Assembly: GCA_016280845.1 (NCBI GenBank)
Contig: JAEEHO010000185.1
Span: 1-50,668 of the forward strand
DNA length: 50,668 bases
From: Paludibacteraceae bacterium
Lineage (GTDB): Bacteria; Bacteroidota; Bacteroidia; Bacteroidales; Paludibacteraceae
Direction: 5' to 3'
The notes beneath the pieces were generated by a model. That model was not told where the DNA came from, ran no database searches, and worked only from the letters and a program-made list of their open reading frames with translations. A program made the translations under genes and the position numbers. Positions 6,901 to 43,543 of this stretch are shown in pieces. Every line of letters begins with the position of its first letter. Position 1 is the stretch's first letter.

Positions 6901-9900
6901 TCTTGGAATGCCTGAGCATTACCTATCAGTCTGCGGAGACTACCACGCTGGATGTTTGTATCAAGCATGGTTCCAATCACAGGTAACTTCTGAAGCCAAT
7001 CGGATGCAGTATGTGCTGAAGGAGTGTAAGTATAGAAGAGATTTGCAAGTTCCTTAGCTTCTGCAGGAGTGTATATCGGAGTCTTCGTACCTTTCTGTGT
7101 CATGTGCAGAATACCCTGATAACACTCATCATACATCTGGGACTGTATCTTATCCCTGAGTTTACCGGGCATGTATGCGTAGTGTGGATTAAGGATATGC
7201 TTCTGATAGCTGCCTGTTGCAGAAACTCTATTGAAGAGGTCTGCAATCTCTTTCAGCTGGTCATCAGTGTACTTCGTTCCAGCAGGAAGCAAGCTACGCA
7301 TCTTAGCAATCTCTGTATCCTTGGTAATGTCTAAGAGTGCAGACATTCCAGTAGAGGCCTGATTGTTGAACACGTACAGCTGCTCAAATAAATCCTGAGG
7401 GAGCGTAGCATCCGGGAACTCCTTGAAATATTTGTCTATTGTATCTACTGTTAGAACTTTATATTTTTCTACAATTTGTCCAACAATATCTTTATATCCC
7501 TGCTGATACTCTAAGGCTACGCCCATGTAGTCAAGCACATCGAGGCCTGCTTCATTAACAGCCTTCAGTGTACTATCAAGTCTATTTCTGAAGGCGCTAC
7601 CTTGGATATTACTTAAGAAGAGTAATCCGAGGATACGAGCAGCACGTGTGGTGTTTTTCCATGCTACGAAGATATCGCTGAGTGCACCTTTGAGCGCACT
7701 AGCATGACACTTCTCGTAGTCCATGAGCTTGCGCTGACTGAGGATATATTCATTCACTTTGCCTAGTACAGAGCGCTCCATAACTACTACGGAGTCATCT
7801 GCAAGGTAGCGTGTAAGCTGTTCCTGATTTGTGAGCGCACGCTGTACTGCATTGTATCTACCCTTCTTGTCAAGGGTAAGAGTCACAAGTGTGTAGCCAC
7901 GTACATCAAGCTGCTGCTTAATAGTCTTCCAGTCAGGCTTCTTTACGCCTGCGTAGTTAAGCATACTGCGCAAGCTCTGTGAAGGATTGCTGAACAACCG
8001 GAGATAGTTTGTAGTAGCCTCCATCTTATCCTGTACATGGTGTAAGCCTCTAGCCATATTGTCTATGAGCTTATCAGATGCGTAAGGATTAAAGAGGCGT
8101 TGTGTATCTATATCTCCAATGATGCTACAGTTGTAGGACTCATTAAACCAGTTATTGATTCGTCCGGGTGCAATACGAGAAGCTTCAGGGAAGTACTGCT
8201 GTAAGTTCTGTACTGTCTCTGAAGTGAGTACTTCAAAGTTGGACATCAGGTAACGGCTAGGCATGTACTCTGACATCTTATCTAAGTACTCTCCAACCTT
8301 CTTGCGTGCGTACGACATGAAGTCTGAGCCGCCTTCCATAGGCACGTAGGAATTGAACGCACCCTTGTAGCTCTGTACAGGTACTGAGAACTCATCAACG
8401 CTGTTAATAAGGTCATCAAGCTGCTTAGGAGTATAACCGCTGAGGTCTTTGTAGATGGAGATATACTCATGGTTACCAATTACAACACGCTCTAATCTGA
8501 TGTCACGTGTGTTCTTTGTAAGGTCAGCCATACGCTTACCGAACAGGATACCAGCTTCACCCTGCAGTGCAACACACTTGGGGTCGATGAGCATCATGTT
8601 CATACAGTCACGCACGAGATGCTTTTCGAAGTCTTCATCTGAGAGCATACACAAAGTCTCAACTGCAGCACGCTTGTGTGCAGTGTTAACCTGGCTGAGG
8701 CTCTTGAGCTTTGCAGCCATCTGCTTATCATAGTCGTGCTTGATGATGTAGTTGTAGTAACCATCTATAGAGCCCTCAGCAAACTTAAGTTTTGAGGGTG
8801 TTGCCTCATTGAGTGCATCTACAAGGTCTGTGAACGGACGGTGAACCTCACTGTAGAGCTCGTAGTTGATACGGTTGTCGTGTGTGAGCCAGCGTCCCTG
8901 CTGGTATGCAGCTTCCTTCAGATCCAAATAAGTACCAAGAGATTCTGCTGAGTCAGCAATCTTCTTGTACTCATCCATGATAGCACGGGTAGAAACTACA
9001 CGGTTATTGAATCCTGCATATTTATTCTCTATGAGTGCTGTAGTTGTAGCATATCTGTGGATACTGTGCGCTGAGTTGTAGACAAGCTCTGCTGCACACT
9101 CATCATAGATGGTGCACAGTGCATCTTTAAAGTGGTCAGACTTAACAATCTCGTTCGCTCTAAGTGTACCGGAGAGCTGGAATAAAGTGTCAAGGTCAAC
9201 AAGGTTTGCATACTTCTTACGGAGTACCATGATTGCTGAGTAGTATTCAGCAGCAGTGTTGAGCTCAAGGTTTGCCCAAATAGGCATATCTCTTAAGCCT
9301 GCTGTCCTAGGATGTGAGGAAACCTGCACAACCAATGCTTCGTATACTTCCTTGTATGCGTCTGCACCAATATGGTCAAGCAGTTCAGGATTCTCTATCA
9401 GCTCGAAGGTACTGTTGAATCTCTTGGAGAGTTCGTAGATTGTATCCATGCGCTCTGTAATCTCTGCAGAAGTCATGCTGCTGGTAACTAAGTTCTTGAG
9501 TGTACCTTCGCTAAACCACTCTTCCATCAGAGCTGTATCAAATGTTTTCTTGAGCTGTATAGGATTGAACTGACCATTGACTGCATTGTAAAGCGCACGC
9601 ATTGAGTTGACACGGTGCAGCTTGTCACGTCCCTTGGATGCAATATCAATGAAGTCAGAGATTCGTTTCTCACTGATGACTGTCTCTAAAGCATCGCCAA
9701 CGATTGCTGTACGAGAATGCTCAACAGCGTGTACAACCTCTTCACCTGCTTTGAAGAAGTCACTGAGTGCGGGCATTGTCTGAGGTGCAGTACCATTGAT
9801 GATATCTGTAAGGCCTTTGAGCTGCTTTGCAATCTTAGGGTCTGTATCCATTACGATACGGCCTGCAGTGTTGTTGAGCAGTACGTCTAACTGCGCATCA

Positions 9901-12900
9901 TCAAGGGTATCTGTTATGGCTTTACGGATTGCCATTACTGTACCATCCTCGATGACAGCGTATCCACCTGCCTTACGGTAAATCTCAGCCACGTCTACTG
10001 CAGAGTTCCAGCGTACATCCATGCCGTTGTAGAGCAAGAAGTCTTTTATAACTCTGTCTGATCCGGTTACGGATGCACCTGAGTTGAAGCCAATGAAGCG
10101 AAGCCTCTTATTGGAATCAGTAGCACGCTGAGTGATAACATTCATGTAGCTCTGAATGTTCTGCAAGTACTCATCTTTAGAAGTTCCGGGGAACTGTTTA
10201 GCAACCTGCTGATACTGCTCAGTAGCTTCCATACTGCTGAGGTTATACAGACGTGTTGACTGAGAATCATGCAATACGAAAGGAGCTGCGGCATTTCTAA
10301 AGGTTGTTGTCTCTCCGTCGACTCTAAAGCTTATCATGCAAGGATCAGCATTGCGCACGGTACTGTCACAGCTGTAGAACACATCAATGTATTCAGGGTC
10401 AGGCTCGATGTAACCTTTAGCGAATCCTTCTATAGCAGCTACGTTGTCAGCAGTATTAAGAGTGTTGCATCCTGCTTTCCAAAGAGGAGCGACACCTTTA
10501 TCAGACACCTGACGTAAGTACTCGGTAGCATCATCTATGATAGAGTCAACAATGTTTTCGATGTACTTAGAGTTACGTGTCTGTGCATACGCCTTAGCGT
10601 AGGAATTAATCTTGTATGTCTTGTCACCTGCAAATGCATCAAGAACTGCATTGATTTGGTCCTCAGGACACTGGTTCAAAGTTGCAGCTGTCTCGAAGCT
10701 GTTGAAGAACTTCTGAGTACTTCTCTGCTCTGCACAGGTGTTCAGGAAGTCCTGAATCTGCGCATGGTATTCATCCAACTTGTCTACAGCTGTAGTGATA
10801 TACTCAGGAATCTCGTGCTCATATTGTGCTGCAAGCTCAAGGAGCTCATGCTTACGGTCGCTGAGAAGCGCATCGACATTCTTAAATGCATTGTTTACAG
10901 CACTGTTGATATCCAAGGCATCCTTTACAACAGTGCGCATAGCCTCATCTGAGGTGTATAACAATGCTCCCTGATACTTCTGCAAGGTAACATTGAAGAA
11001 CTTGCCAAGCTGTTCTGTCTCAAGCTCGCCCTCTGCATTGAAGAGCACCTGCTTGATGTGCTTGTGGTCTGTCAGCAACTGCTCCTTAATAACGTCTGCA
11101 GAAACATTTAAACCATGGTGTCTCTGCAGCTCCTTACGGAAACCTCTTGCTAAGTTGTTTAGAGCTGCAAGACGGTTCTCTGTACCCTTAGGAGCAATAG
11201 CATCAATGTATTCCTGATAAGGACGGTGCACATAACCTTTATATGCGATGACATCCCTATAGTTTTCCAAGTCCTGTAAATACTTCTCAGTATTCTCAGT
11301 GAAGGCTCTGATGCGCTCAATAAGAGTGTTCTCGACCCTAGGACTAGATAAGTTATCACCATATTCTTTAACGGCCTCTATGAGGCGATTTGAAGCTAAC
11401 TCATAAGCCTCAGGAGTAATAGACCTTGCGATGTTAGCATTGAAACCATCACGCATAGTCTGAACCAAAGTGTGAAGGTTCTCTAAGGAATTGATGACAT
11501 CGCCTCGTTTATAGGCTGCTGCTTCAAAGAACTTAGCGATATCTCCGGACATACGCCTGTAGATACCGATTGTACGCTCTGTACCTAAGAGGTTCTTAGA
11601 TGCGATGACGTTGTTGTACATTCTGCGGTAGTTCATGTATACCGCTTTCAAGTCGGGGCAAACGCCTTCAAAGAAAGGCTGGTTGTGTACGAGCGCATCA
11701 TTGAGGGCCTTGAAGTCATCGAAGCCAAGGCTTCTAGCGTGTTCATCAAGCTCCTCAATAACTTTAAATGCATCTGCACCCTCATCAACCTTGTGCATGA
11801 TTGCACGAATAGGTCCGAGAGTATCTTCTGTAAGATACTTTACAGTAGCATCCATGGCTCCCTGCTGGAACTGCTTGTAGAAATTTGCAGCACTTTCAGA
11901 CATCTTATCAGACGCAAAGAGGACAGACATCTCCTTCCTTAAATCTGCAAACGCATCTGCAAGTGCAGGAGAGTATGCCTTGTGAGTCTCACAGATGTCT
12001 GTGATACGTTTATTTATAGATTCCTGCGCAAAGGCTGCCTTCTTAGCGATGTTGATATCCTGAATGTAGCCGAGGAGTTTCTTAGTCCAGCGTACAGAGC
12101 CTACTACAGCAGCAAGCTGAGGAGCACCTGTAACAAGGATGAACTTGTTCAGCGCTCCGGTAATCTCACTAATGCTGTGTAAGGACTCAACGATTCCGGG
12201 AGTCTTATAGATTACTGAAGCCAGTGCGTTTCCGCTTTCCTTAGTAATCTTAGCAGCGTTCTCTACGCTGTACTTGATATAGTTCTGAGTGAACTTTGTG
12301 ATAGTTTCTCTATACGCGCCCTTGGAGGCAACGTTAAGGACATCCATCTTACCGAGATACTCTCTCATAAGTTTGGATGTAGTGTTTGCGGGTAAGCCGC
12401 GGCCTACCTGTTTAGCAAGCTTAGCGTACCACTTAGGGTCGAACATGTTCAGCATGTAGCCGAGACGAGCATTGGCAACGGCTTCTCGCATGAGCTTCTC
12501 ACCGCCACCGGACTCGATTGCATTCTTGACTGCACGTGCGTAAGCTTTGCCTATTGCAGCTTCTGTATCTGCATTACGTAAAATTGCAAGCTCTCCTGCA
12601 GCTGCATGGTCGCCAAGTATCTTTCTTAAGGAAGAAGGATTGACACCATCGGACTTGATGACACGCACACCTGCCTGATTAATTAAATCAAATGTGTCAT
12701 CAATATATTTTGTTGCAGTAGAATCTACAACTTTAGCGGCCTCTAAAGATGTCAGGCCTGACTTATAGATATCTATCCATGAGCCGGGGTCTAACAAGAT
12801 ATCCATGAAGGTAGTGAGCACACGAGCATAAGCACCACGCTCTTCGGGTGCATAAGTATTGATGTAGTCAAAGTTAGGTGTATCACCGTATGCACCGAGC

Positions 12901-15038
12901 CACATCTTGAATGCTACAGCACCTGCATAGCCTTCAGCATCAATCCAAAACTTTTGTGCCTCAGGTGAGAGCTTAGCATACTCTTCATCTGCAATCTTAC
13001 GAAGACGTGCCGCACGTACAGGGTCATCATAGTTACCATAGCGGTACTCATTACTTCCTGCACCAAGATACTTGAATACGTTGGTTGCATCTGCGGTTTC
13101 TCCTAAGCTGCCGAGAGAACTGAACAATGCATTCAGAGCAACTGTAGAAAGAGGGACACCCTGCTGAATCTGTGTAATGGGGCCTGTAACGAGACGAGCA
13201 GCGTACTCAGTAAGGTCTTTGTTGAGTGTAGACCCCTCGAATTGGTCAAAGAATGCACGTCCAATCGCACGCTTAGCAACATCTAACAAGGAGTTAACCT
13301 GAGTGGAGCTGTCCATATTGAGGTATAAGTCTGCCTCTTTATTGTAGCGCTCGACGCCCTCAGTAAGCTCACGAATGTAATCATCAATGCTGAGGCGGTA
13401 ATCCTCATTCATATAGATAGGCTTGTTGCGGTTAGCACGCATTCTGATAGAGAGCTCTCGGTACTGGGCCTTGTATTCTTCGGGAACTGTAAGCGATCCA
13501 AAAGCATCAGTAAGCATGGTGCGGTCGACTTTATCGCCCTTGCCACTCTTGATTCTATCTTCAGCTTCTATATAGCCTTTAAGTGCATAGTAAGTAGACA
13601 CTTCATCTCCGGTCATTCCGGAAGCTCTAAGTGCCTTAGTAGCCGCAGTGTACTCTTCAAGGACTGCGGAATATTCTGCGGTGTAATTAGCATACGCCTT
13701 TTCACGAGTCTCAACTAATCTCTGATAACGCTCAAAGACTTTCTGATACTCTGCAAACTCTTCGTTTGTAAGAGGGCGCTGCTTATCAAGTTCTATAAAC
13801 TCTCTGAGCTGGTCTTCTACAGCAGTCAGCTTACGGTTGATAACATTGGTAGGACTGTTGAGGTCGTACTCTCTGTCACGGGACATCTGCTGTAACTGTG
13901 CAGCATAGCTGTCTACGATTTTACGCTGTTCATCAACGCTGTCGCTCTGCGCATATCTGTATAAGCGTCCGGTAACAGTGTCATACAGCACGTACTTATC
14001 TTCTGCACCGATGCCTGCCAAGCGGTCACGGCCTATTGTGGCGTACTGCTGAGGGATATTTGATGCAGACATGGAGAACTTCGTATGCTGAATAGCATCT
14101 CCGTCCTCAATAACCCACAACTGCATTGTGCCGTTAGTGAGGCCATTAGTAACCTGCTGGTATGTGGTAGAGGTAACAGTGTTAACATTCCACTTGGTGT
14201 TACCCTTTACATTACTACCTGAACGGTTCACATCATAGGTATCACGGATATCATTATCTGAGTAACGCTTCTTGGTTGCATCCTGCAATGTGCTCAACAG
14301 TGCAGCCATGTCAGCTTTCTGACTGGAATGTAATCCTGCAAGCCCATTGAGCTTCTCATTACGCAGCATCCATGTGTATGTTTCAGGGAAACGCCTAGCA
14401 TTCTCTTCAACTGTACGTGCAAAGTCAGGCTTTACTTCAACATCAGGAAGGTTGTTCATGTACTGCACAAACCAATTATCAGCATACGCTGTACGAGGTG
14501 CAGGCATGGTTGAACTAGGGACATACGAAGTAAGCGCTGAGGTAATTCCTGAAAGCGCACCTATATTTCCTGCTGTTGACGTAGTGCTTGCAATCCTGCT
14601 TACAATCTTAGGTGTGGCGGGAACAACAGTAGGAAGCACTACAGGCTGCGCTGCTGGTTTAGGCGCAGGAGTAGGTGAATGTGTAGATGTAGAGTGTGAG
14701 GATGTACCCGATGAGCCCGACGAACCTCCGGATGAACTAGGTCTAGCCGCTTGTGCACCTGCTACAGCTGCTTGGGTGGCAGCAGACGTAGCAGGCTTAG
14801 GGGCTGGAGAGCTAGAATGTGAGGTATTTGTCTGCGTCGAGGGTTTGGACGTAGATGACGAGCTTGAGTGCGAAGTGTTTGAGTGCGTCGAAGGCTTAGA
14901 CGCAGGCTTCGACGAAGATGAGGAGCTGGATGGCTTCTTAGCAGCGGCAGCACCCGCAGCTGCACCTGCAGCGGCACCCGAAGATTTCTTCTTGCCGCCT
15001 GCATCGTTGACCATGGTGTTGACTTTACTAAGTGCCAT
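3960..15038 (-). CDS. Giant protein of 3692 aa with unknown function. It is a candidate virion internal/ejection protein.
   Basis: It is one uninterrupted ORF at the distal end of the late arm. It has an N-terminal Ser/Ala/Pro/Thr low-complexity region, a long mostly helical body, C-terminal repeats of about 70 aa and a basic Tyr/Arg/Lys tail. I could not recognise any catalytic motif. Confidence 0.85.
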   Translation of the reverse strand: MALSKVNTMVNDAGGKKKSSGAAAGAAAGAAAAKKPSSSSSSSKPASKPSTHSNTSHSSSSSTSKPSTQTNTSHSSSPAPKPATSAATQAAVAGAQAARPSSSGGSSGSSGTSSHSTSTHSPTPAPKPAAQPVVLPTVVPATPKIVSRIASTTSTAGNIGALSGITSALTSYVPSSTMPAPRTAYADNWFVQYMNNLPDVEVKPDFARTVEENARRFPETYTWMLRNEKLNGLAGLHSSQKADMAALLSTLQDATKKRYSDNDIRDTYDVNRSGSNVKGNTKWNVNTVTSTTYQQVTNGLTNGTMQLWVIEDGDAIQHTKFSMSASNIPQQYATIGRDRLAGIGAEDKYVLYDTVTGRLYRYAQSDSVDEQRKIVDSYAAQLQQMSRDREYDLNSPTNVINRKLTAVEDQLREFIELDKQRPLTNEEFAEYQKVFERYQRLVETREKAYANYTAEYSAVLEEYTAATKALRASGMTGDEVSTYYALKGYIEAEDRIKSGKGDKVDRTMLTDAFGSLTVPEEYKAQYRELSIRMRANRNKPIYMNEDYRLSIDDYIRELTEGVERYNKEADLYLNMDSSTQVNSLLDVAKRAIGRAFFDQFEGSTLNKDLTEYAARLVTGPITQIQQGVPLSTVALNALFSSLGSLGETADATNVFKYLGAGSNEYRYGNYDDPVRAARLRKIADEEYAKLSPEAQKFWIDAEGYAGAVAFKMWLGAYGDTPNFDYINTYAPEERGAYARVLTTFMDILLDPGSWIDIYKSGLTSLEAAKVVDSTATKYIDDTFDLINQAGVRVIKSDGVNPSSLRKILGDHAAAGELAILRNADTEAAIGKAYARAVKNAIESGGGEKLMREAVANARLGYMLNMFDPKWYAKLAKQVGRGLPANTTSKLMREYLGKMDVLNVASKGAYRETITKFTQNYIKYSVENAAKITKESGNALASVIYKTPGIVESLHSISEITGALNKFILVTGAPQLAAVVGSVRWTKKLLGYIQDINIAKKAAFAQESINKRITDICETHKAYSPALADAFADLRKEMSVLFASDKMSESAANFYKQFQQGAMDATVKYLTEDTLGPIRAIMHKVDEGADAFKVIEELDEHARSLGFDDFKALNDALVHNQPFFEGVCPDLKAVYMNYRRMYNNVIASKNLLGTERTIGIYRRMSGDIAKFFEAAAYKRGDVINSLENLHTLVQTMRDGFNANIARSITPEAYELASNRLIEAVKEYGDNLSSPRVENTLIERIRAFTENTEKYLQDLENYRDVIAYKGYVHRPYQEYIDAIAPKGTENRLAALNNLARGFRKELQRHHGLNVSADVIKEQLLTDHKHIKQVLFNAEGELETEQLGKFFNVTLQKYQGALLYTSDEAMRTVVKDALDINSAVNNAFKNVDALLSDRKHELLELAAQYEHEIPEYITTAVDKLDEYHAQIQDFLNTCAEQRSTQKFFNSFETAATLNQCPEDQINAVLDAFAGDKTYKINSYAKAYAQTRNSKYIENIVDSIIDDATEYLRQVSDKGVAPLWKAGCNTLNTADNVAAIEGFAKGYIEPDPEYIDVFYSCDSTVRNADPCMISFRVDGETTTFRNAAAPFVLHDSQSTRLYNLSSMEATEQYQQVAKQFPGTSKDEYLQNIQSYMNVITQRATDSNKRLRFIGFNSGASVTGSDRVIKDFLLYNGMDVRWNSAVDVAEIYRKAGGYAVIEDGTVMAIRKAITDTLDDAQLDVLLNNTAGRIVMDTDPKIAKQLKGLTDIINGTAPQTMPALSDFFKAGEEVVHAVEHSRTAIVGDALETVISEKRISDFIDIASKGRDKLHRVNSMRALYNAVNGQFNPIQLKKTFDTALMEEWFSEGTLKNLVTSSMTSAEITERMDTIYELSKRFNSTFELIENPELLDHIGADAYKEVYEALVVQVSSHPRTAGLRDMPIWANLELNTAAEYYSAIMVLRKKYANLVDLDTLFQLSGTLRANEIVKSDHFKDALCTIYDECAAELVYNSAHSIHRYATTTALIENKYAGFNNRVVSTRAIMDEYKKIADSAESLGTYLDLKEAAYQQGRWLTHDNRINYELYSEVHRPFTDLVDALNEATPSKLKFAEGSIDGYYNYIIKHDYDKQMAAKLKSLSQVNTAHKRAAVETLCMLSDEDFEKHLVRDCMNMMLIDPKCVALQGEAGILFGKRMADLTKNTRDIRLERVVIGNHEYISIYKDLSGYTPKQLDDLINSVDEFSVPVQSYKGAFNSYVPMEGGSDFMSYARKKVGEYLDKMSEYMPSRYLMSNFEVLTSETVQNLQQYFPEASRIAPGRINNWFNESYNCSIIGDIDTQRLFNPYASDKLIDNMARGLHHVQDKMEATTNYLRLFSNPSQSLRSMLNYAGVKKPDWKTIKQQLDVRGYTLVTLTLDKKGRYNAVQRALTNQEQLTRYLADDSVVVMERSVLGKVNEYILSQRKLMDYEKCHASALKGALSDIFVAWKNTTRAARILGLLFLSNIQGSAFRNRLDSTLKAVNEAGLDVLDYMGVALEYQQGYKDIVGQIVEKYKVLTVDTIDKYFKEFPDATLPQDLFEQLYVFNNQASTGMSALLDITKDTEIAKMRSLLPAGTKYTDDQLKEIADLFNRVSATGSYQKHILNPHYAYMPGKLRDKIQSQMYDECYQGILHMTQKGTKTPIYTPAEAKELANLFYTYTPSAHTASDWLQKLPVIGTMLDTNIQRGSLRRLIGNAQAFQDAETRTRTAMFLHYMEEGKTASYAEQHIVKSQFDYSKVGLIGHLETALPFSTFKIYNAAYWLAAAGEKFSTLKMITRFSKYTSRFYDTEDIAARIRDTHVAEWLADPNNGVKADEETPDATDGIMGWFAENIFGYQGVNELYAEGLRLGDNHYVKVGNSFTEAIQLCIDVMMAPEYIKRGQLPPILMDSVYTPLGVLFKFLADRDKNDFFNPTDRSYRDATSPVSGDFVNWAADRYYDILNLIPAFGMLANLVLTHIKNGAVNIADLKMMLCDENLKDAYMHKIFQATCDGLGTFFPSIVGTINDDKKGYYDREIGLNWYDNTNIEAIMQRINPETGKRYTKEEAEAFAKAYKGSHQFVAGISSLPAFMLKDPATYINYKYMFMRMGFGEKDVEENMGKLLDQLYGDGTYLNGIYINNGKNNDTYINIALLEDTFAALAAKGYDIDEVILQLQNQRWVNPATGELLKNSDLHKMLAQSAFLSAYEHLPDYVKYDKEQYAALIAYWKANGLTTEQAWMMMQSEYGYIDERGRYRILTEEQAKAYSQQLNDDYYEFLDQMPDWCKYEPGAASRTMNYFIGLGMSMEDAQRYILAHNAYVDVYGQLHQYSDEEVAQKNAQSQKEFYEYYNTLPDYIKYEKGAYGRTLKYLKSIPGMTDELARLFIRRGAYLTVDGRLINCTDMEQESNYTSKWVDYEKPLGYASFNDYYQTLPNYLKYEKGAFSRAYHILKSLGFAYNDILALIKQGAYAMEAGTAQSLFNTLPKDRAGIAVTDINTLLQKYGGVLIEYNGKYYTLLNCTGLNRSRSYRRTYNSSANRYTKRSYTKWNRKKYTRRPSSYIPNKFARPKNQRAVRHYYRSPYTQQPYVTKGSYSSTYSKVNLFAGASYGARQIYKIDIGRSPVRQALSTKSVYPAAYRNIVFAYRRSLYKDMYAKYGASRMRMRANVAHSYSNASIVRLRRNEIQYRVKYATKRSDPVVRKNKK
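4620..5800 (-). repeat. Tandem protein-level repeats of about 70 aa inside the giant ORF (at least 4 clear copies plus degenerate ones).
   Basis: The repeated core reads EHLPDYVKYDKEQYAAL / QMPDWCKYEPGAASRT / NTLPDYIKYEKGAYGRT / QTLPNYLKYEKGAFSRA. Each copy is followed by a ..G(L/M/F)..(E/D)......GAY...G pattern. Copies are spaced about 210-240 nt apart. Confidence 0.8.
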
Positions 15039-35206: not shown

Positions 35207-35524
35207 ATGATAGCAATCACTCTTAACAATCTCTTCGCAGCAACCATCATCCTTGTTTGCCTCATCGCACTCGTACTGGATATCATGGCATACGTAGCAG
35301 CAACCCATTCAATCGAAGCGCCTCAGAACGCTGAAGCCGAACTCCCTACATGGTGCTTACCGCCTAAGGTAAACAGAGAGCTTGTAGAGGACTTTGACCT
35401 CAACGAGATGCCTATCGCCTTCTTAGAACTCCTCACACTTGATAAAGCAGACGGTACTACACGACCTGCGCAATATCTCATAGAGGACGGAGAAATCACA
35501 GGAGTGATTATTGATGAAGACTAA
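35207..35524 (+). CDS. Small membrane protein (105 aa).
   Basis: TAAGGAGG lies upstream. The N-terminal TM segment is LFAATIILVCLIALVLDIMAYVAA. Confidence 0.55.
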   Translation: MIAITLNNLFAATIILVCLIALVLDIMAYVAATHSIEAPQNAEAELPTWCLPPKVNRELVEDFDLNEMPIAFLELLTLDKADGTTRPAQYLIEDGEITGVIIDED

Positions 35525-36029
35525 CTTCTATAACCAAGAGAAAGAATTCGTACCTATTAAAGGATACGAGCATGAGTATAAGATTAATCCTCACGGACAG
35601 ATACTCAGTCTACTCACTGACCAATACGTGACTACCTCAGTAGATTCCAAAGGCTATCTGATAGTACGCTTATATAAAGATGGACACTGCAAAGTCAAAC
35701 GTGTCCATATCCTTACAGCAGAAACCTTCATACCCAATCCTCAGAACTTACCCGTCGTAAACCATATTGACGGTAATAAGCAAAACCCGGATGTAACCAA
35801 CCTAGAATGGACTACGTTCTCAGAAAACACCTTACACGCACACAGAACAGGACTCATAACAAAAACTAACAATCAAAAGGTTGTTCGTGGCGATGGTAGG
35901 GTGTACGCCAGTGTGACAGAAGCAGCAAAAGACAACAACATCAGCAAGTCAGCAATAAGCAAAGTCATATCCGGCGAACGTAGAACCGCAGGTGGATACA
36001 CTTGGAGAAAGGAGAATGAAGATGGCTAA
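35511..36029 (+). CDS. Free-standing HNH homing endonuclease (NUMOD4 / HNH_3 / NUMOD1-like).
   Basis: Motifs are PIKGYEHEYKINPHGQILS, GYLIVRLYKDG, VHILTAETFIPNPQNLPVVNHIDGNKQNPDVTNLEWTTFSENTLHA and a C-terminal HTH-like ISKSAISKV. Confidence 0.85.
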   Translation: MMKTNFYNQEKEFVPIKGYEHEYKINPHGQILSLLTDQYVTTSVDSKGYLIVRLYKDGHCKVKRVHILTAETFIPNPQNLPVVNHIDGNKQNPDVTNLEWTTFSENTLHAHRTGLITKTNNQKVVRGDGRVYASVTEAAKDNNISKSAISKVISGERRTAGGYTWRKENEDG

Positions 36030-37000: not shown

Positions 37001-37237
37001 ATGATTAAATTGACTATTGGTACTAACACAGAGCGTAAAACCGTTATGGTTAACCCTAAGGACAACGCAAAAAACGTCCTCACTCAACAGGGTATCAACA
37101 TCGACCGTACAGCAATGCACTTGAACGGTTCACTTATTCCCGCTGTTGACCTCAACAACACCTTTGAAGGCCTCGGCATCGCAGATGAATCCGAAGCAAT
37201 GATTATCGCAGTTGTTAAGGCAGACTCAGCACAGTAA
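37001..37237 (+). CDS. Candidate ubiquitin-like (beta-grasp, ThiS/MoaD-like) small protein of 78 aa, with no C-terminal GG.
   Basis: The ATG at 37001 is preceded by GGAGGA. Translation is MIKLTIGTNTERKTVMVNP...AMHLNGSLIP...FEGLGIADESEAMIIAVVKADSAQ. The size, strand/helix pattern and genomic neighbours (JAB and E1-like) support the call. Confidence 0.35.
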   Translation: MIKLTIGTNTERKTVMVNPKDNAKNVLTQQGINIDRTAMHLNGSLIPAVDLNNTFEGLGIADESEAMIIAVVKADSAQ

Positions 37238-37247
37238 GCAATGTATT

Positions 37248-37280
37248 GGGCACTTCTATCTTAGAGGTGCCCTTTTTATT
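37248..37280 (+). terminator. Intrinsic terminator/attenuator between the Ubl-like gene and the enzyme genes.
   Basis: The sequence is GGGCACTTCTA-tct-TAGAGGTGCCC followed by TTTTTATT. The RBS of the next gene follows immediately. Confidence 0.6.
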
Positions 37281-37294
37281 AAGGAGACTTTACT

Positions 37295-38818
37295 ATGGCT
37301 TGGAAACGAATCGCAACAAATCTTTCACCTATTTTTCAGACAGCATGTGCCCGAGCATACAACCGAGTATCAACAATCCTGTACAAATCTCGTATCCCCT
37401 TTACTACATATGATGTACAGGATGCATTCTCATGGTTGATGTTTCCAATTTATGAAGGCGCTACTGAATTACAGTTTGAGATAGACGCACAGGTAAGAGT
37501 AAAATCTTACGTACTTCCCAAAGACGTGCCTATCGAAACTACCGCTGACCGATTTGTAAACAATTACATTGTGAACGATTCTCGAAACCGCTCACGCAGA
37601 CATGTTATCATTATAAACACATCCACAAACAAAGCGCTTGAAGAACAAATCTGCGCTAAACTTGATGCGTTCACACAACGCGAAAGAGCACCACGTGAAT
37701 CATTCTATCAAGTTTCTACTATCCCAGTTCCGGCATTAACGCTAACACCTGTACACCGTGTGCGCTGTTACGATAAAATATTCGTTAATGATGAAGGCGA
37801 AGTATTTGTCACAAACATCATCTTAACAAATCTTTACGGAACTGAGATCTGCTCACGCATAAGTGCAGCCTTACTAGCACAGTGTACAAGATATAAAGAG
37901 TTCGTAAACAACGATGAAATCTTTGCAGCCCTTGTAAAAGGATATGCCGAAGCAGATGCAGAAATAGTCAACAACTGCGTACATCAGATATACGATGCTA
38001 AACTAAATGAGCTCAACGCTGCACGTATGGCAGAAGCTGTCAAAACAATCACAACCTTAGCCACAAAAGACATTACAAAAGCTGCTGAACAAACAGTAGT
38101 AGAGGCACAGCGTCGTGTACAAAACATTGAAGAAGATTACAAAGACGCACTAGGTAGACTCCGCAATGCGCAGCTCAATCTCTTAGAAGCTATGACATTA
38201 GGAACAACCGAACGTGAGCAACAGATTGCAGACTTCTTAACCAGCATCACACCTAACATAACCCATCTTCAGAAAGGTGACAACAATGCCATCTACTTAT
38301 CATACAAGACACCGTTATTATACTTTGAACCTAAGCACATGGAACTGATGCTCAACTCGTCTCGCCCTAATCCTTGTAACACTGCTCACCCTAGTATCAG
38401 AAGCCTGTTAAAAGAAGTATTTATAGATAAGACTTATCAATTCATCTTTGACACAGGTGTTGACATCGACTTACGTTACAATGATATCTACTACTGGGCT
38501 CCACCGACCAACATTGTTCTTCAGGGTATCCCTAATCCTCATCATAAGTACTACAACTGTTGGGGAGACAACAAGCCTTACATCAAGAAAGCACTCGTCG
38601 CTCATGATATGATAGCTGCAATCACACAGATAATCGCTGCATTCAGTGGCATGAACTTAACTGATACCGCAGTAGTTCGTAGGTTTGTAGAAGAAGAACT
38701 CATGACAGATTCTTACAAACGTATCCCTTGTCTCAAGAAATTAGCAACCGGAGAACTCTTTACTATTGAACAGTATTGTAACAATTACACCGCAGCACAG
38801 GAGGCTAACAATGCATAG
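37295..38818 (+). CDS. 507-aa protein with an unknown N-domain, a central coiled coil and a C-terminal domain with an E2/UBC-like Cys motif (tentative).
   Basis: AAGGAGA lies upstream. The C-terminal sequence YQFIFDTGVDIDLRYNDIYYWAPPTNIVLQGIPNPHHKYYNCWGDNKPYIKKALVAHDMIAAITQIIAAF resembles the beta-meander, HPN-like flap, Cys and helix layout of E2 folds. Confidence 0.3.
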   Translation: MAWKRIATNLSPIFQTACARAYNRVSTILYKSRIPFTTYDVQDAFSWLMFPIYEGATELQFEIDAQVRVKSYVLPKDVPIETTADRFVNNYIVNDSRNRSRRHVIIINTSTNKALEEQICAKLDAFTQRERAPRESFYQVSTIPVPALTLTPVHRVRCYDKIFVNDEGEVFVTNIILTNLYGTEICSRISAALLAQCTRYKEFVNNDEIFAALVKGYAEADAEIVNNCVHQIYDAKLNELNAARMAEAVKTITTLATKDITKAAEQTVVEAQRRVQNIEEDYKDALGRLRNAQLNLLEAMTLGTTEREQQIADFLTSITPNITHLQKGDNNAIYLSYKTPLLYFEPKHMELMLNSSRPNPCNTAHPSIRSLLKEVFIDKTYQFIFDTGVDIDLRYNDIYYWAPPTNIVLQGIPNPHHKYYNCWGDNKPYIKKALVAHDMIAAITQIIAAFSGMNLTDTAVVRRFVEEELMTDSYKRIPCLKKLATGELFTIEQYCNNYTAAQEANNA

Positions 38819-39608
38819 TATAAGATTAAATGAGAAGAGCCTTGAAGAAATGATAGACCTTTTAAAGGAACAGTTTCAGAAGGCTAACAACACCACAGAC
38901 AAGATTTCATTTACCTATAAATTTTCACATCCCGCAGAAGAGAAGGTGTGCTTAAAAATTGAAGAAGCAGCATGGAGAAAAATCAACGCACTCGTGGCAA
39001 CCTGCGATAAAGAAGTCGCATGGCACTGCACCGCTACTAAGACTGATAGTTCGTACATTATTGAAGATGTGTTCGTCTTTCCTCAGATAATCAGTGCAGC
39101 AACCGTAACCACAGACGATACAGAATACGCTAAGTGGTTAATGGCTCTGCCCGATAATGTATTCAACAAGCTCAGAGTACACGGACACTCACACGTAAAC
39201 ATGGGCGTAACACCTTCCGGAACAGATACCACCTATCAGGAAAATATCCTCACAAACGTTAAAGACTTCTTTATCTTCATGATACAGAATAAGAAAGGTG
39301 ATATCTGGAAAGCCATCTTTGACGTAGAAGCAAACGTAGTCTACGAAAATGAAGACATCCTCGTAATTACTCCGGATGTAACTGCAAATGTATGGGCTGC
39401 AGCACAGATAGAAACCTATGCAAAACCTGCAGTTATGCCTACAATAATACAGCAGCCTACAGTAACAGCAGCAAGCACTAAACCTAAAGCTGTTGTAAAA
39501 GAAAAAGGAAAAAGAGGCCGTTCGCCTAAAACAAAGACTGAACATGATTATGAACAGCTGTACATGCGTCAGTACTACGGTTACGGCTATCCTGAAGACT
39601 GGGATTAA
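38811..39608 (+). CDS. JAB/MPN (JAMM) metalloprotease-domain protein (start revised from 38766).
   Basis: The ATG at 38811 is preceded by AGGAGG and overlaps the upstream stop. The complete JAMM motif HGHSHVNMGVTPSGTD (HxHx7Sx2D) is present, with an upstream Glu (KEVAWHC). Confidence 0.8.
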   Translation: MHSIRLNEKSLEEMIDLLKEQFQKANNTTDKISFTYKFSHPAEEKVCLKIEEAAWRKINALVATCDKEVAWHCTATKTDSSYIIEDVFVFPQIISAATVTTDDTEYAKWLMALPDNVFNKLRVHGHSHVNMGVTPSGTDTTYQENILTNVKDFFIFMIQNKKGDIWKAIFDVEANVVYENEDILVITPDVTANVWAAAQIETYAKPAVMPTIIQQPTVTAASTKPKAVVKEKGKRGRSPKTKTEHDYEQLYMRQYYGYGYPEDWD

Positions 39609-39621
39609 ATAAGGAGGCAAT

Positions 39622-40338
39622 ATGGACACTTCAAAAGTTTTAGAATATTTCGACCCCTCAGAATACAGATTCGCATACAATGTCATCGGTTGCGGAGCGA
39701 TCGGTTCCCACGTGTGCGAACAGCTTACACGCTTAGGTATCACTGAAGTCCACATCTATGACTTCGATACCGTAGAAGCACACAATATCACCAATCAGAT
39801 GTTCTGCGACAGTGACATCGGAATGAGCAAAGTCGATGCTTGTGAAGCTGCAATGAAAGCAATCAACCCGGAAATTACGGTTTACAAACATCCCGAAGGA
39901 CTTACTCCTCCGTATGTAATCAACGGAATTTGCATCTTATGTGTAGATAACATCGACCTTAGACGTGAAATCGTAAAAGCTAATCAGTTCAATCCAAACT
40001 GCGCTGCCTTCTTAGATTTCAGAATGCGTTTAGTAGATGCACAGCACTACTTTGCAGATGCAAAGAACCGCTTTGAAGTAACAGAACTTCTGAACACCAT
40101 GGCCTTCACACATGAAGAAGCCATGGACGCAACACCTAAGAGTGCGTGCGGTGTAGAACTCAGTGTAGTCTACACAGTCAAAGCAATCGTATCTTTTGGA
40201 ATGGCAAACATGGTTAAATGGTTGATGTCGAGAGATGACTATAGAACCATGATGCAGGTAAACATGGACAGTTTCATAGTCGATGCTTTCAGAGCAAGAC
40301 CCAGACCTACTGTCAACATTGCAGCCGACACGAAGTAA
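39622..40338 (+). CDS. ThiF/MoeB/E1-like adenylyltransferase-domain protein.
   Basis: TAAGGAGG lies upstream. The Rossmann loop is VIGCGAIGSHVCEQLTRLGI. Other motifs are YDFDTVEAHNITNQMF (the NxxNQ equivalent of the NRQ motif) and ILCVDNIDLRREI. Confidence 0.75.
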   Translation: MDTSKVLEYFDPSEYRFAYNVIGCGAIGSHVCEQLTRLGITEVHIYDFDTVEAHNITNQMFCDSDIGMSKVDACEAAMKAINPEITVYKHPEGLTPPYVINGICILCVDNIDLRREIVKANQFNPNCAAFLDFRMRLVDAQHYFADAKNRFEVTELLNTMAFTHEEAMDATPKSACGVELSVVYTVKAIVSFGMANMVKWLMSRDDYRTMMQVNMDSFIVDAFRARPRPTVNIAADTK

Positions 40339-40434
40339 GGCATACTTTTTACTAAGGTGGGGTACAGGTAATCTTTTAAGTACCACTCCTAAATAAAATT
40401 TAAAGCCACCCCCCGGTCATAGAAAGGAGACACT

Positions 40435-41505
40435 ATGTACATAAATTACTACAGTCGCTGCAGATACATGCCTAATGCTACCCCGGAACAACTTGAGAAA
40501 GAAAAAGAACGCAACCTCGGACGTATCGTAACCAAACATATTGGCAGTATGCAAATGTCAGAAAAACAATGGATCGCAATCTGTAAACTACAAGCTATCC
40601 TACATGACTATTGCATCGGACGTGTGTTTGCATTAGCCGTAGATGTTGAAAGATCATGGCAGACAGAATGTTACGATATGAGTTCACGCTATATTCAATT
40701 TGACATTCCTAAACGGAGAGGTGGCACTAGACATCTCTGTGCACCTGATGAAGAATTGATGCAACTCCAGAAACGAGTACTCCACGTACTGACTAAAGAG
40801 CTGCACATCCTACCTCATAATGCTGCACACGGTTTCACCCCACATCGTAACTGCAAGACAGCATTAGAGTATCATCGTAAGCATCACGCACGTTGGTTCT
40901 TAAAGTTAGATATCAAAGACTTCTTCCCAAGCACCACAGCTAACATGGTGTATCGTGCAATACGCGATAATGCCATACTACACCGATTAAACGATACATC
41001 TATAAATCGACTAATCAACTTCTGTGTACTTGACGAAACTTTACCTCAGGGTGCGCCAACGTCACCGTTCTTAACGAACCTTGTGATGCAGCCTTTCGAT
41101 GAAGCTATTACAACGTACTGTAAAGTAAATCATCTGTGTTACACAAGATATGCAGATGACATCCTGATTACGAGCCCTACTACCTTTGAAATAGCCCCAG
41201 TCATCAATGATATAAAGAATATTCTTTTTGGCTTCTACACCATTAACGATGAGAAAACAAGATACGGCAGTTTCAACGGAAGAAACTGGAACCTCGGGCT
41301 TATGTATAATAATAAGTTTGAGATTACCGTAGGCCATGCCAAAAAGAAACTTGTTAAGAATCTCATACACAACTTTTTTACAAAACCTGAATGTCACACA
41401 GTTCAGAATTGGTTACACCTCATGGGTGTCGTCGGCTACTGCGCTTATATTGAACCGGAGTACTTCAACAAGTACCTCGAACAACTCAAGGCAGCAGAAC
41501 TATAA
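40435..41505 (+). CDS. Reverse transcriptase, retron-type/retron-like, with no accessory domains.
   Basis: GAAAGGAGA lies upstream. Motifs are YIQFDIPKRRGGTRHLCAP, AAHGFTPHRNCKTAL, FLKLDIKDFFPST, LPQGAPTSPFLTNLVM, YTRYADDILITS and INDEKTRYG. Confidence 0.9.
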   Translation: MYINYYSRCRYMPNATPEQLEKEKERNLGRIVTKHIGSMQMSEKQWIAICKLQAILHDYCIGRVFALAVDVERSWQTECYDMSSRYIQFDIPKRRGGTRHLCAPDEELMQLQKRVLHVLTKELHILPHNAAHGFTPHRNCKTALEYHRKHHARWFLKLDIKDFFPSTTANMVYRAIRDNAILHRLNDTSINRLINFCVLDETLPQGAPTSPFLTNLVMQPFDEAITTYCKVNHLCYTRYADDILITSPTTFEIAPVINDIKNILFGFYTINDEKTRYGSFNGRNWNLGLMYNNKFEITVGHAKKKLVKNLIHNFFTKPECHTVQNWLHLMGVVGYCAYIEPEYFNKYLEQLKAAEL

Positions 41506-41507
41506 AA

Positions 41508-41692
41508 TGCGCTAGAAGATTACCTTGTATTACGATACAAGCCTCTGAATCAATTTCAGAGTGTCATGATAAGCAGATGTTTCTGCACTAGACCTGAGGT
41601 CCCCTGCAGCGCCTCCAGCCGCGGAAGGACACGCGGAGGAGGCGACTGCCAGGGTCGCTCAGGTCTACGTACAGTAATAAAATGGTAGCGCA
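41508..41692 (+). ncRNA. Retron-like msr/msd module 1 (a1 - G - two short hairpins - 77-nt GC-rich hairpin - a2).
   Basis: The a1 arm TGCGCTA (41508-41514) pairs with the a2 arm TAGCGCA (41686-41692), and a G follows a1 at 41515. Short hairpins lie at 41524-41541 and 41543-41561. The long hairpin lies at 41590-41666, closed by AGACCTGAG/CTCAGGTCT. Confidence 0.45.
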
Positions 41693-41805
41693 TAAAGGCA
41701 AGATAACACCTTGCCTGCTTACCAGACATTTTGATAACGACTATCCCATAAAGTCTCCTTTCAAAATGTCAACCCTTATAAGTTTAATCACTTCACTTAG
41801 AAGCC

Positions 41806-41843
41806 CCTTTAACTAGGTTAAAGGTATCCGCCTGTTTTTTTTT
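41806..41843 (+). terminator. Hairpin plus T9 tract ending the RT-proximal structured RNA region.
   Basis: The hairpin CCTTTAAC-tag-GTTAAAGG is followed by 10 nt and then TTTTTTTTT (41835-41843). Hairpins at 41696-41716 and 41725-41770 precede it. Confidence 0.35.
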
Positions 41844-41893
41844 CATCGCATTAATATTGTTATAAGGGACTAAATACACAAGGAGGAATCGCA

Positions 41894-42370
41894 ATGCGAC
41901 GTGCAGAATACGAAGCAATGAAGAAATCGTTACAAGCTAAGTTAGCAGCACTTGAATCTGAGCCAATCGAAGAAGACTATAATCGTTGGACTCCTGAGAC
42001 AGGTGAAACTTACTATCAGCTTGGCGATGAAGGAGATGTTTTTGAGAACCGTTGGAACGACAACCTCACAGATCAGTACCTCTACAACTTAGGCAACTGC
42101 TTCAGAACTAAAGAAGCAGCAGCATTCGCAGCTGAAACTCTCAAAGTTATAGCAGAGCTCAGAAACTTTGCAGACCCTGCAAATGTTTGGGATGGTAAAA
42201 CACGTCATTACTATCTCGCATATAACTATGACAGAGATGCAATACTTATCTTAGGCGAACAGGGCGTTCGTACACATGACATCTACTTCAGCTCTATAAA
42301 AGTTGCAAATAAAGCAATTACAGAAATCGGAGAAGGTAGAATTAAGAAATACTATTTAGGTATTCTTTAA
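41894..42370 (+). CDS. Hypothetical 158-aa protein flanked by structured RNA modules.
   Basis: AAGGAGGA lies upstream. No motif was recognised. The sequence includes WTPETGETYYQLGDEGDVFENRW...GNCFRTKEAA. Confidence 0.6.
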   Translation: MRRAEYEAMKKSLQAKLAALESEPIEEDYNRWTPETGETYYQLGDEGDVFENRWNDNLTDQYLYNLGNCFRTKEAAAFAAETLKVIAELRNFADPANVWDGKTRHYYLAYNYDRDAILILGEQGVRTHDIYFSSIKVANKAITEIGEGRIKKYYLGIL

Positions 42371-42379
42371 ATTAAGTGA

Positions 42380-42518
42380 CGCTTTAGAAGGTTACATTAC
42401 CGCAACATGGCTGCTAACTAAGTTAGCACACACGCAATGTTATAAATGCATTCATCCGTACATGCAGCTCGTCTCCGTAGGAGACATTGAGCTGCAGTAC
42501 GACGCTTAAAGTAAAGCG
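42380..42518 (+). ncRNA. Retron-like module 2 (shorter).
   Basis: The a1 arm CGCTTTA (42380-42386) is followed by G and pairs with TAAAGCG (42512-42518). Hairpins lie at 42412-42428 (TGCTAAC-taa-GTTAGCA) and 42463-42496 (nested 8+6 bp). The 5' word GCTTTAGAAGGTTAC resembles GCGCTAGAAGATTAC of module 1. Confidence 0.35.
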
Positions 42519-42529
42519 CACACATATGC

Positions 42530-42742
42530 CACACTTTAGTAAAGTTTATTCTGAATGAATACCCATTCAGATGTACTAACTAAGTTGGTACAAACACAAA
42601 GTCTTGAACACATGGCAGATCCGGAAGCCTCACTCCCTGAACGAGCCCAGAATGACGACGAATAAAATGCTATTCGTCGACATTCATGGGACCGTTCAGG
42701 AGTTCAGGTTCCGGATCTGCCACGGTATTAAAGTAAAGTGTG
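42530..42742 (+). ncRNA. Retron-like module 3 (a1 - G - two short hairpins - 108-nt hairpin - a2).
   Basis: The a1 arm CACACTTTA (42530-42538) is followed by G and pairs with TAAAGTGTG (42734-42742). Short hairpins lie at 42550-42571 and 42573-42591 (GTACTAAC-taa-GTTGGTAC). The long imperfect hairpin lies at 42614-42721, closed by GGCAGATCCGGAA/TTCCGGATCTGCC. Confidence 0.45.
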
Positions 42743-42766
42743 AATAATTTTATTTAGGAGGCACCT

Positions 42767-43237
42767 ATGACTTACGATCCTTATCCAACTAAGTGTAATA
42801 TCTGTGGCGGTCACGTCTCACTTACGACAACATTCATGATCTACGGACGTAACTATGGTACAGGATTGGTTTACAGTTGTGATAAGTGTGGTGCTAGGGT
42901 GGGCACATACCCGAGATTACCTGAGGAAAGAAAGAAAAAGAAACCACCGCGTGCAACCGGAATACTTGCAGATGAATACACACGTAACTTACGTATGAGG
43001 GCTCACGGTTATTTTGATAGCTTGTGGAGCGGTAAACGCAACAGTCTCAAAGTACGCGCACATTGTTATTGGACTCTTGCAGGTATCTTAGGTGTCCCCG
43101 AACCTCAAGCACACTTCGCTATGATGAACCGTGAAGAACTTAAGGATGCTCTCAGAACAATGCACGACCATTGGGATTATATGCTCGAAGACGCTAGTAA
43201 CTTTGAACAAATGACCTTAGGAAAGGAGAAGAAATGA
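42767..43237 (+). CDS. DUF3268-like zinc-finger protein.
   Basis: TAGGAGG lies upstream. Motifs are CNICGG...YSCDKCGARVGTYP, then GILADEYTRNLRMRAHGYFDSLW...CYWTLAGILG. Confidence 0.6.
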   Translation: MTYDPYPTKCNICGGHVSLTTTFMIYGRNYGTGLVYSCDKCGARVGTYPRLPEERKKKKPPRATGILADEYTRNLRMRAHGYFDSLWSGKRNSLKVRAHCYWTLAGILGVPEPQAHFAMMNREELKDALRTMHDHWDYMLEDASNFEQMTLGKEKK

Positions 43238-43521
43238 AATACGTATGGATAGTAATACTAGCAATACTTTACATATCTTGGGCGATCATGAGCGTTCAGG
43301 ATTGCATTGAAGCATATAAATTTGCACGGGACGATTATTACCCTGCTATATATCGCTCAAAGAAACGACAGTTCCTTGCAAGCCTGCATCTGTATACTGT
43401 AATCTTTATAATCCTGCATGTCGTCATTTTATTTGTATATAGTCTTTCACAATATGTAGGTAAGCCGCCCTTAGGCCAGCCCCTATATCTTGTAGTTGAC
43501 AGTAATATTAAGATGTTCTAA
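43234..43521 (+). CDS. Small membrane protein (95 aa).
   Basis: It overlaps the upstream gene by 4 nt. Two hydrophobic helices are present (VWIVILAILYISWAIM and LYTVIFIILHVVILFVYSL). Confidence 0.5.
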   Translation: MKYVWIVILAILYISWAIMSVQDCIEAYKFARDDYYPAIYRSKKRQFLASLHLYTVIFIILHVVILFVYSLSQYVGKPPLGQPLYLVVDSNIKMF

Positions 43522-43543
43522 GATAAAAATACGGAGGTGAATC

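Follow-up and report, generated by a model that had tools for sequence, protein, structure and literature searches.

Reverse transcriptase and the units of its array

The 50,668-nucleotide (nt) stretch analysed here, called the window below, is contig JAEEHO010000185.1, filed under Paludibacteraceae bacterium; it looks like a complete tailed-phage genome of ~50.7 kb. It carries a gene for a retron-type reverse transcriptase (RT), followed on the same strand by an array of structured units laid out like the msr and msd parts of a retron template RNA. The architecture, conservation, and possible function of these units are the subject of this analysis, which follows up a first-pass annotation made from the sequence alone.

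The RT gene (40435..41505, + strand) encodes 356 amino acids (aa) and matches Pfam RVT_1 at 3.5e-22. Profile comparison places the protein in the retron clade: the top 25 RT matches in PADLOC are all retron RT models, the best being RT_II-A (1.3e-53), and the models for DRT2 and DRT3 failed (NCBIfam Drt2, 46.7 bits where 390 are required; Drt3a, 64.7 bits where 200 are required). The closest solved structure is the retron Ec83 RT (2e-30), and the best sequence matches in the PDB are the retron RTs Ec83, Ec86, and Ec78. Among the features that define retrons, including the NAXXH, YXDD, and VTG motifs (PMC7736814), the motifs PHNAAHG (NAXXH) and YTRYADD (YXDD) are intact and invariant in 14 family members. 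The protein also has an 80-aa N-terminal extension, and its homologs number 914 at E < 1e-30.

Each unit is enclosed by a stem with arms a1 and a2 (7–9 base pairs (bp) in the window), and a G follows a1 at 41515, 41782, 42387, and 42539. Module 1, a long unit (41507..41693, +), begins two bases past the RT stop codon. Its arms (a1 ATGCGCTA, 41507-41514; a2, 41686-41693) and the G at 41515 enclose hairpin H2 (41543-41561) and an msd hairpin at about 41587-41669, and the fold closes without constraints. In all close relatives, the a1/a2 stems of its orthologs covary (ATGCGCTA, ATGCATCA, ATGCACCA, ATGCGTTA).

Module 2 (42380..42518, +) has a short msd. It is closed by CGCTTTA (42380-42386, with G at 42387) and TAAAGCG (42512-42518), and this stem extends to 42376-42521 with one bulge (GTGA.CGCTTTA / TAAAGCG.CAC). 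Its interior consists of H2 (42412-42428), a tail (42429-42447), and an msd hairpin at 42457-42501, which includes the hairpin 42463-42496. Module 3, again a long unit (42530..42742, +), is closed by CACACTTTA (42530-42538, with G at 42539) and TAAAGTGTG (42734-42742), and contains H1 (42550-42571), H2 (42573-42591), a tail (42592-42609), and an msd hairpin at 42613-42722. The order of msr stem-loops followed by an msd hairpin thus holds for modules 1, 2, and 3; a fourth unit, described below, has the msr hairpin and lacks the msd hairpin.

An unconstrained RNA fold of 42371-42766 gives two separately closed modules at -160.8 kcal/mol, compared with -88.9 +/- 5.9 kcal/mol for dinucleotide shuffles (z = -12.2), and folds of the single modules agree with the joint fold of modules 2 and 3. 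The opposite strand folds about equally well, as expected for any near-perfect palindromes. A repeat search finds a direct repeat of 38 nt between modules 2 and 3 (42414-42451 / 42576-42613, 74% identity), and the 3' ends of both modules share an identical 11-mer, TTAAAGTAAAG, at 42506 and 42728.

These results bear out the first-pass annotation at the level of the letters. The coordinates, closing stems, Gs, and internal hairpins it gave for modules 2 and 3 had been read correctly off the sequence, including the 108-nt hairpin of module 3 (42614-42721) and the hairpins 42412-42428, 42463-42496, 42550-42571, and 42573-42591. The words it listed as shared between modules are present, and the 38-nt repeat and the 11-mer TTAAAGTAAAG were found independently of it. 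The word TCTGAAT does occur in modules 1 and 3 as claimed; it belongs to H2 in module 1 and to H1 in module 3, which are not equivalent hairpins, so this sharing is probably coincidental.

Shared architecture and covariation

Comparison of 28 units from 10 phage contigs gives one common order. The 5' half consists of an a1 stem of 7–10 bp, a G, a variable H1, and H2, a hairpin of 7–9 bp that often has an AAC-UAA-GUU apex; the 3' half consists of the tail AACAAAAUGU (AAC(A)CAA(U/C)GU), the msd hairpin, a U/A-rich motif ending in G, and a2. The motif before a2 is UAUAAU(A/G)G in most phages and AAAAUGG or UUAAAG in the window clade. The closing stem appears in the folds of all 28 units, being mostly closed in two of them; the G directly after a1 is found in 27/28 units (the exception is L098_mA), and the G directly before a2 in 28/28. 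The msd region is a hairpin in every unit except the window's fourth. A reading of the pre-a2 motif as a TATAAT-like -10 promoter box was ruled out on two grounds: the window clade has AAAATGG or TTAAAG at this position, and a conserved -35 element would be impossible inside the variable msd arm.

Covariation supports the H2 hairpin as a conserved RNA structure. In the alignment of H2 plus tail over the 28 units, H2 is 92.3% paired and 6/8 pairs show compensatory changes; 60 cells are changed on both sides of a pair, compared with 17.3 +/- 4.0 in shuffles, and the covariation score is 0.747 against 0.219 in shuffles. When the pairing partner is slid by 1–3 columns as a control, pairing falls to 27–47%. 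Nine module 3 orthologs show an a1/a2 stem that is 97.5% paired with 3 compensatory pairs, and an H2 with 5 compensatory pairs. Between the window and L016, a relative with 79% RT identity, the 102 consensus pairs of modules 2 and 3 include 5 changed on both sides, 6 changed on one side via G:U, and 0 broken; 4/5 of these compensatory pairs sit in the msd stem of module 2.

The units can also be detected independently. A covariance model (R2) was built from 22 units of other phages, leaving out the window and L016 to avoid circularity, and the whole 50,668-bp window was scanned on both strands with filters off. The four best matches are led by module 3 at 32.0 bits (E 2.7e-4); module 2 comes next at 28.5 bits (E 1.4e-3), then a hairpin at 41806-41828 with 19.9 bits (E 0.089), and lastly module 1 with 15.8 bits (E 0.62). 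No other site in the window exceeds 11.3 bits. Training units and new sites in family loci score about 23–46 bits. As a negative control, unrelated loci of viral and metagenomic origin (628 kb in all, other retron-type RTs being present in some) yield only two matches at E <= 1, both of ~19 bits. Model matches lie beside the RT and on its strand in 31/33 cases in family loci and in 12/12 cases in distant relatives.

The claim of the first-pass annotation that the modules are paralogous RNAs and not random secondary structure is thereby supported by the common hairpin-plus-tail motif, 92% pairing in H2, covariation, and detection by a model trained on other phages. The covariation check that it had proposed favours structure (60 against 17 double-changed cells; 27–47% pairing in the slid controls), and the modules prove to be conserved and structured in related genomes, with 2–4 units in 10/10 contigs.

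The fourth unit and the neighbouring spacer

The spacer between module 1 and ORF158, an open reading frame (ORF) that separates modules 1 and 2, contains a fourth, short unit (41773..41868, +). It is closed by a1 CCCTTATAA (41773-41781, with G at 41782) and a2 TTATAAGGG (41860-41868), a perfect 9-bp stem that has a G at both junctions and is present in the minimum-free-energy fold of the spacer. Its interior holds an H2-like hairpin (41806-41825), a run of nine U residues, and then ATTAATATTG before a2, and the hairpin is matched by both covariance models. By position and a1, this is probably the ortholog of the short middle unit in related phages. The window clade therefore has four units: the three modules proposed earlier as candidate templates are real as structured elements, and the number three has to be revised. 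A fourth TTAGAAG word pointed out at 41797-41803 is likewise real; it lies inside the fourth unit, whose a1-G is elsewhere.

The spacer is the most conserved stretch of the locus, with 93.5% identity to L016. Directly after module 1, the nearly invariant non-coding stretch 41694-41772 contains a hairpin (AAGGCAAG-ATAACA-CCTTGCCT) at 41696-41717, and a perfect 10-nt inverted repeat (GACATTTTGA / TCAAAATGTC) spans 41725-41770. Separately, TCACTTA+G (41794-41801) and its only nearby complement, TAAGTGA (42373-42379), bracket ORF158 exactly, and the 3' context, GGTATTCTTTAAATTAAGTGA, resembles the 3' end of module 3. This bracket could be what is left of a unit into which ORF158 was inserted, or it could be chance, and as a reading it is weaker than the fourth unit; a module enclosing ORF158 (TCACTTA-G at 41794 / TAAGTGA at 42373) was dropped, since the 9-bp unit at 41773-41868 explains its 5' half better. 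The 5' part of ORF158 (41926-41949) holds CTAAGTTAGCA, a word that recurs at the H2 hairpin of module 2 (42407-42428) and may be the trace of an older unit now inside coding sequence.

Conservation among relatives

Ten family contigs were compared, with RT identities to the window of 44–79%: L016 at 79%; L001, L097, L099, L100, L158, and L159 at about 50%; and L098/L018 and L160 at 44–45%. The contigs of the relatives are 48–53 kb long. All ten share one gene order, consisting of a ubiquitin-like 78-aa protein, a ~500-aa protein, a ~270-aa protein, a ThiF-like protein, and the RT, then a non-coding gap, followed by a 136-aa protein, a 135-aa protein, and an SNF2 helicase. The gap after the RT holds 2–4 units of the same design in 10/10 contigs.

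The composition of the array varies within this frame. All four units of the window recur in L016. Three units are present in L001, L097, L099, L100, and L158: one long (a1 ATGCnnnA), one short (a1 CCTACAA), and another long one (a1 CAC(A/T)CTTTA), which is orthologous to module 3. In L159, three full-length units follow each other in tandem, 4–8 nt apart, while L098 and L160 each carry a short unit and a long one; in L160, two small ORFs lie between the units, much like ORF158 in the window. Between the window and L016, the modules are 82–87% identical, compared with 72–77% for the flanking RT, ORF158, and DUF3268 genes.

More distant relatives (RT identity 33–39%) come from contigs binned with metagenome-assembled genomes of Clostridia, Lachnospiraceae, and Christensenella from animal guts, and from unbinned metagenome contigs. 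Here model matches lie near the RT both upstream and downstream, which indicates that the units need not keep a fixed place relative to the RT. In L163, L165, L166, L237, and L002 (RT 37–40%), units of 270–340 nt are enclosed by an a1-G...G-a2 arrangement of 8–9 bp, the match in L002 coming from the scan of the family loci. An RNase H gene (L163, 1931-2368; Pfam 2e-46) lies between the ThiF-like gene and the unit upstream of the RT, and its presence fits with processing of RNA-DNA hybrids made by the RT. Broader scans add less: a pattern scan of IMG/VR for module 3 a1...a2 gave 57 matches, only one of them with the RT (the L001 contig) and the rest chance. In scans of metagenomes and genomes with the RT alignment, the patterns amounted to generic retron motifs, so that the loci returned were mostly distant and only L017, L018, and the 37–41% clade proved useful.

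The msd regions behave differently from the msr parts. In orthologous units the msr parts keep 53–66% identity, whereas msd identity is no higher than the shuffled level (0.56 vs 0.54, 0.46 vs 0.44, and 0.60 vs 0.57). Despite this, the msd parts of orthologous units all still fold as hairpins. Long msd stems are thus kept by selection while their sequence drifts freely, as expected if the hairpin of the product matters. The predicted complementary DNAs (cDNAs), folded as single-stranded DNA, give z = -7.8, -4.9, and -10.3.

Phage genome and gene setting

Products encoded by the window include terminase, portal, and major head proteins; further genes specify a DNA polymerase of family A, a primase-helicase, an SNF2 helicase, a YqaJ exonuclease, and an HNH homing endonuclease. 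No integrase was detected among the window ORFs scanned. The array lies in the early/replication gene block of an apparently virulent phage family. The HNH / I-HmuI-like homing endonuclease gene (35511-36029) belongs to the early region and precedes the ubiquitin-like cassette described below by a few genes. On the minus strand, a giant ORF of 3692 aa (3960-15038) has zero Pfam matches. A scan for transfer RNAs and transfer-messenger RNAs found none, and among GenBank phages blastn gave zero matches and tblastn returned only retron RTs at <=32% identity.

Two genes interrupt or follow the array in the window clade only. ORF158 (41894..42370, +; 158 aa, no family match) lies between the modules behind a strong ribosome-binding site, and its substitutions relative to L016 fall 32/32/61 by codon position, i.e. 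with a third-position bias. The gene for a DUF3268 zinc-finger protein (42767..43237, +; Pfam DUF3268 4e-21) lies directly after module 3. Both genes are clade-specific insertions around the array, and DUF3268 and a 95-aa ORF appear to have been inserted into the transcription unit of the RT and its units. A promoter and terminator scan of 40300-43000 gave no + strand signal near the modules. By eye, a sigma-70-like promoter (TTGACA, 17 nt, TAAGAT) can be seen at 43496-43524, just before the conserved 136-aa gene, and in relatives the same signal lies directly after the last unit. Since transcription would restart only there, the RT and the units appear to be one transcription unit.

Directly upstream of the RT lies a conserved cassette (37001..40338, +) of four genes. 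The first encodes a 78-aa ubiquitin-like protein (37001-37237, +; AlphaFold mean confidence (pLDDT) 89.8; Foldseek top matches ubiquitin, 2e-5), and the second a 507-aa protein with no family match (37295-38818, +). The third product is a 265-aa JAB/MPN metalloprotease (38811-39608, +) with an invariant E..HxHx7Sx2D (JAMM) motif, for which Foldseek finds CSN5/Rpn11 at 6e-8 and JAMM1 at a template-modelling (TM) score of 0.77. The fourth is a 238-aa ThiF/E1-like adenylyltransferase (39622-40338, +; Pfam ThiF 4e-21, UBA5 3e-11). The JAB and ubiquitin-like folds are recognised by structure prediction only, and the 507-aa, 280-aa, and 158-aa proteins have no match in Pfam, NCBIfam, PADLOC, or PDB sequences.

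A ThiF-like gene is found upstream of the RT down to 37–40% RT identity, immediately so in L165 and L002, with the RNase H gene between the two in L163. Compared with the Bil and CBASS Cap2-Cap3 systems, the ubiquitin-like fold, the JAB fold with its motif, and the ThiF/E1 domain are all present; no E2 was identified for the set. PADLOC gave no match to a retron effector among the neighbours, its only matches being E1-E2 (Cap2-type) models on the ThiF-like gene. At the end of the ubiquitin-like protein, an invariant ...IAVVKADSA is trailed by one to three variable residues, and this variable end looks like a precursor tail that the JAB peptidase would remove, in which case the exposed end would be Ser-Ala, not Gly-Gly. 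The association of the cassette with the RT may reflect functional coupling or only phage synteny.

A proposed multi-template retron and its alternatives

Taken together, the units are very likely conserved paralogous RNAs tied to this RT. A further step, which is probable at a clearly lower level, is that one RT serves several msr-msd templates and yields several multicopy single-stranded DNAs (msDNAs). As regards RNA features, the anatomy agrees throughout with the primer-template of retrons. In the model proposed, each unit would fold alone, and the a1/a2 stem would bring the G 3' of a1 to the template start, which would be the G just 5' of a2, preceded by the U/A-rich motif. The RT would recognise an element common to all units, namely H2 (often with the AAC-UAA-GUU apex) plus the tail AACAAAAUGU; this shared element is a plausible reason why one RT could serve all units. 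The RT might then prime from the 2'-OH of the G and copy the msd region. Up to four different msDNAs might result: hairpin DNAs of about 110, 60, and 125 nt and an A-rich product of roughly 35 nt.

Several points weigh against this model. Transcription, priming, and cDNA synthesis are argued from anatomy and from established retron biochemistry. The RT scores 199 bits with the NCBIfam model retron_St85_RT, under its cut-off of 235, and the VTG position, as aligned to the Ec83 RT, reads NLG (WNLG is invariant in the family), so that this retron feature is absent in its usual form. The units lie downstream of the RT, unlike the canonical arrangement, in which a single upstream unit is co-transcribed with the RT: the window has four downstream and the relatives 2–4. 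The fourth unit is missing the msd hairpin, the search for promoter-like sites drew a blank for modules 2-3, and Rfam gives no match in the window at gathering score, with only noise for 41300-43000 at E <= 10. Synteny partly confounds the link between modules and RT, as all relatives are phages with conserved gene order. Finally, counts of G:U versus A:C pairs (11 vs 5 in H2; 10 vs 7 and 7 vs 6 in the window-L016 comparisons) do not on their own fix the strand, as expected if both RNA and cDNA must fold; the strand is therefore argued from the junction Gs and the orientation of the model matches.

The alternative that survives best is that the extra modules are RNAs of conserved structure which bind the RT or act as RNA and are not copied, with only module 1, or none, serving as template. 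Possible roles of this kind include regulators, RT decoys, mRNA-stabilising or processing elements, and antitoxin-like RNAs. Such a reading would accommodate the fact that all the evidence is structural and comparative, the missing msd hairpin of the fourth unit, and the altered VTG motif. It is nevertheless unlikely, because modules 2 and 3 keep the G after a1, the G before a2, the pre-a2 motif, and the msd hairpin; their complements also fold as DNA, and the msd stems are kept while their sequence drifts.

It is a good deal less probable that the inverted repeats act as DNA, for example as a replication origin, recombination site, or packaging signal. The site does lie among replication genes, both strands fold about equally, and the G:U asymmetry is weak. 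Against this, 43/45 model matches are on the RT strand and the junction Gs occur on the + strand only; the units of distant relatives lie on either side of the RT, at varying distances from replication genes, and move with the RT; and msr hairpins with compensatory changes and G:U pairs fit RNA.

Still less credible is decay, in which modules 2 and 3 would be degenerating duplicates of module 1, or a role as ordinary terminator or attenuator hairpins. The modules are more conserved than the neighbouring genes, carry compensatory substitutions, and are kept down to an RT identity of 44%, or 37% if same-design units are counted; a terminator is further contradicted by the lack of a T-run after the module 2 or 3 hairpins. 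What speaks for this view is that no intrinsic-terminator or promoter signal can be assigned either way and that unit number varies from 2 to 4 between genomes. There is practically no chance that the units are template repeats of a diversity-generating retroelement (rejected, as the 50.7-kb window has no near-identical variable repeat) or that they are templates for a gene-synthesising RT like that of DRT2: either idea would suit an RT encoded by a phage beside a non-coding RNA, but the window holds no second copy of any module or msd sequence (best matches 11–15 nt, chance), the best RT profiles are all retron, with Drt2 at 46.7 against 390 bits, and the a1-G/a2 architecture is retron-specific.

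If several msDNAs are made by one RT, their function is best sought on the side of the phage. A phage-benefiting role, as counter-defence decoys or as sensors in phage-host or phage-phage conflict, is favoured over a host-type abortive-infection toxin-antitoxin, because the array lies in the early/replication block of apparently virulent phages and has no classical retron effector. A wider and rather doubtful proposal is a widespread gut/rumen phage family in which one RT with 2–4 self-priming templates makes a set of msDNAs within the core infection programme, coupled to the ubiquitin-like/E1/JAB proteins. Under this proposal the msDNAs could, for example, work against host immunity as decoys or sensors, or the E1-like enzyme could attach the ubiquitin-like protein to the RT or to the nucleic acid that the RT makes. 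If true, it would mean a retron working for a virus, natural multiplexing, and new partner chemistry.

Comparison with known systems

Retrons are understood as bacterial anti-phage systems with a single RT, a single template RNA, and a single toxin. In this phage family, the gene for a retron-type RT belongs to the conserved core, comes with no recognisable toxin, and is flanked by several candidate templates, which raises the question of what a virus does with msDNA; the linkage to a phage ubiquitin-like/E1/JAB set is a second unexplained association. The first-pass annotation knew of no described system with one RT serving several such units, and a search of full-text literature, of incomplete coverage, is in line with this: it found no report of several msr-msd units per RT, no retron array in a lytic-type phage, and no retron linked to ThiF.

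The closest relatives of the RT are those of canonical retrons (II-A / I-A; the Retron-Sen2/St85 family, Ec83, Ec86/Eco1), with which it shares the NAXXH and YADD motifs; the units share the a1/a2 stem, the G 3' of a1, the msr stem-loops, and the msd hairpin. The window differs in having four units and not one, placed downstream (on both sides in distant relatives) and not upstream, an RT with NLG for VTG and the 80-aa N-terminal extension, and no known effector or toxin; it also lies in a core early phage region, not in a bacterial defence island. In DRT3 (UG3/UG8), a structured non-coding RNA lies downstream of the RT gene (PMC8632793). The downstream position is thus shared with the window, whereas the RT clade, the use of two RTs with one RNA, and the absence of the a1-G/a2 architecture set DRT3 apart.

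Prophage-borne retrons such as Ec67 and Ec73, which reside on P4-like or retronphage elements, combine one msr-msd upstream of the RT with a fused or adjacent effector, and protect the lysogen. They are likewise carried by phages; the window differs from them in its array of units, in having no effector, and in having no integrase among the scanned ORFs. Engineered multiplexed retron arrays ("recombitrons") reportedly combine several msd templates per RT by human design. The array of the window would be their natural counterpart, with a common msr recognition hairpin and divergent msd regions. Its natural paralogs define a compact element for RT recognition, the H2 hairpin plus tail, and the msd cargo can evidently vary without constraint on its sequence, just what is wanted in tools for multiplexed retron editing.

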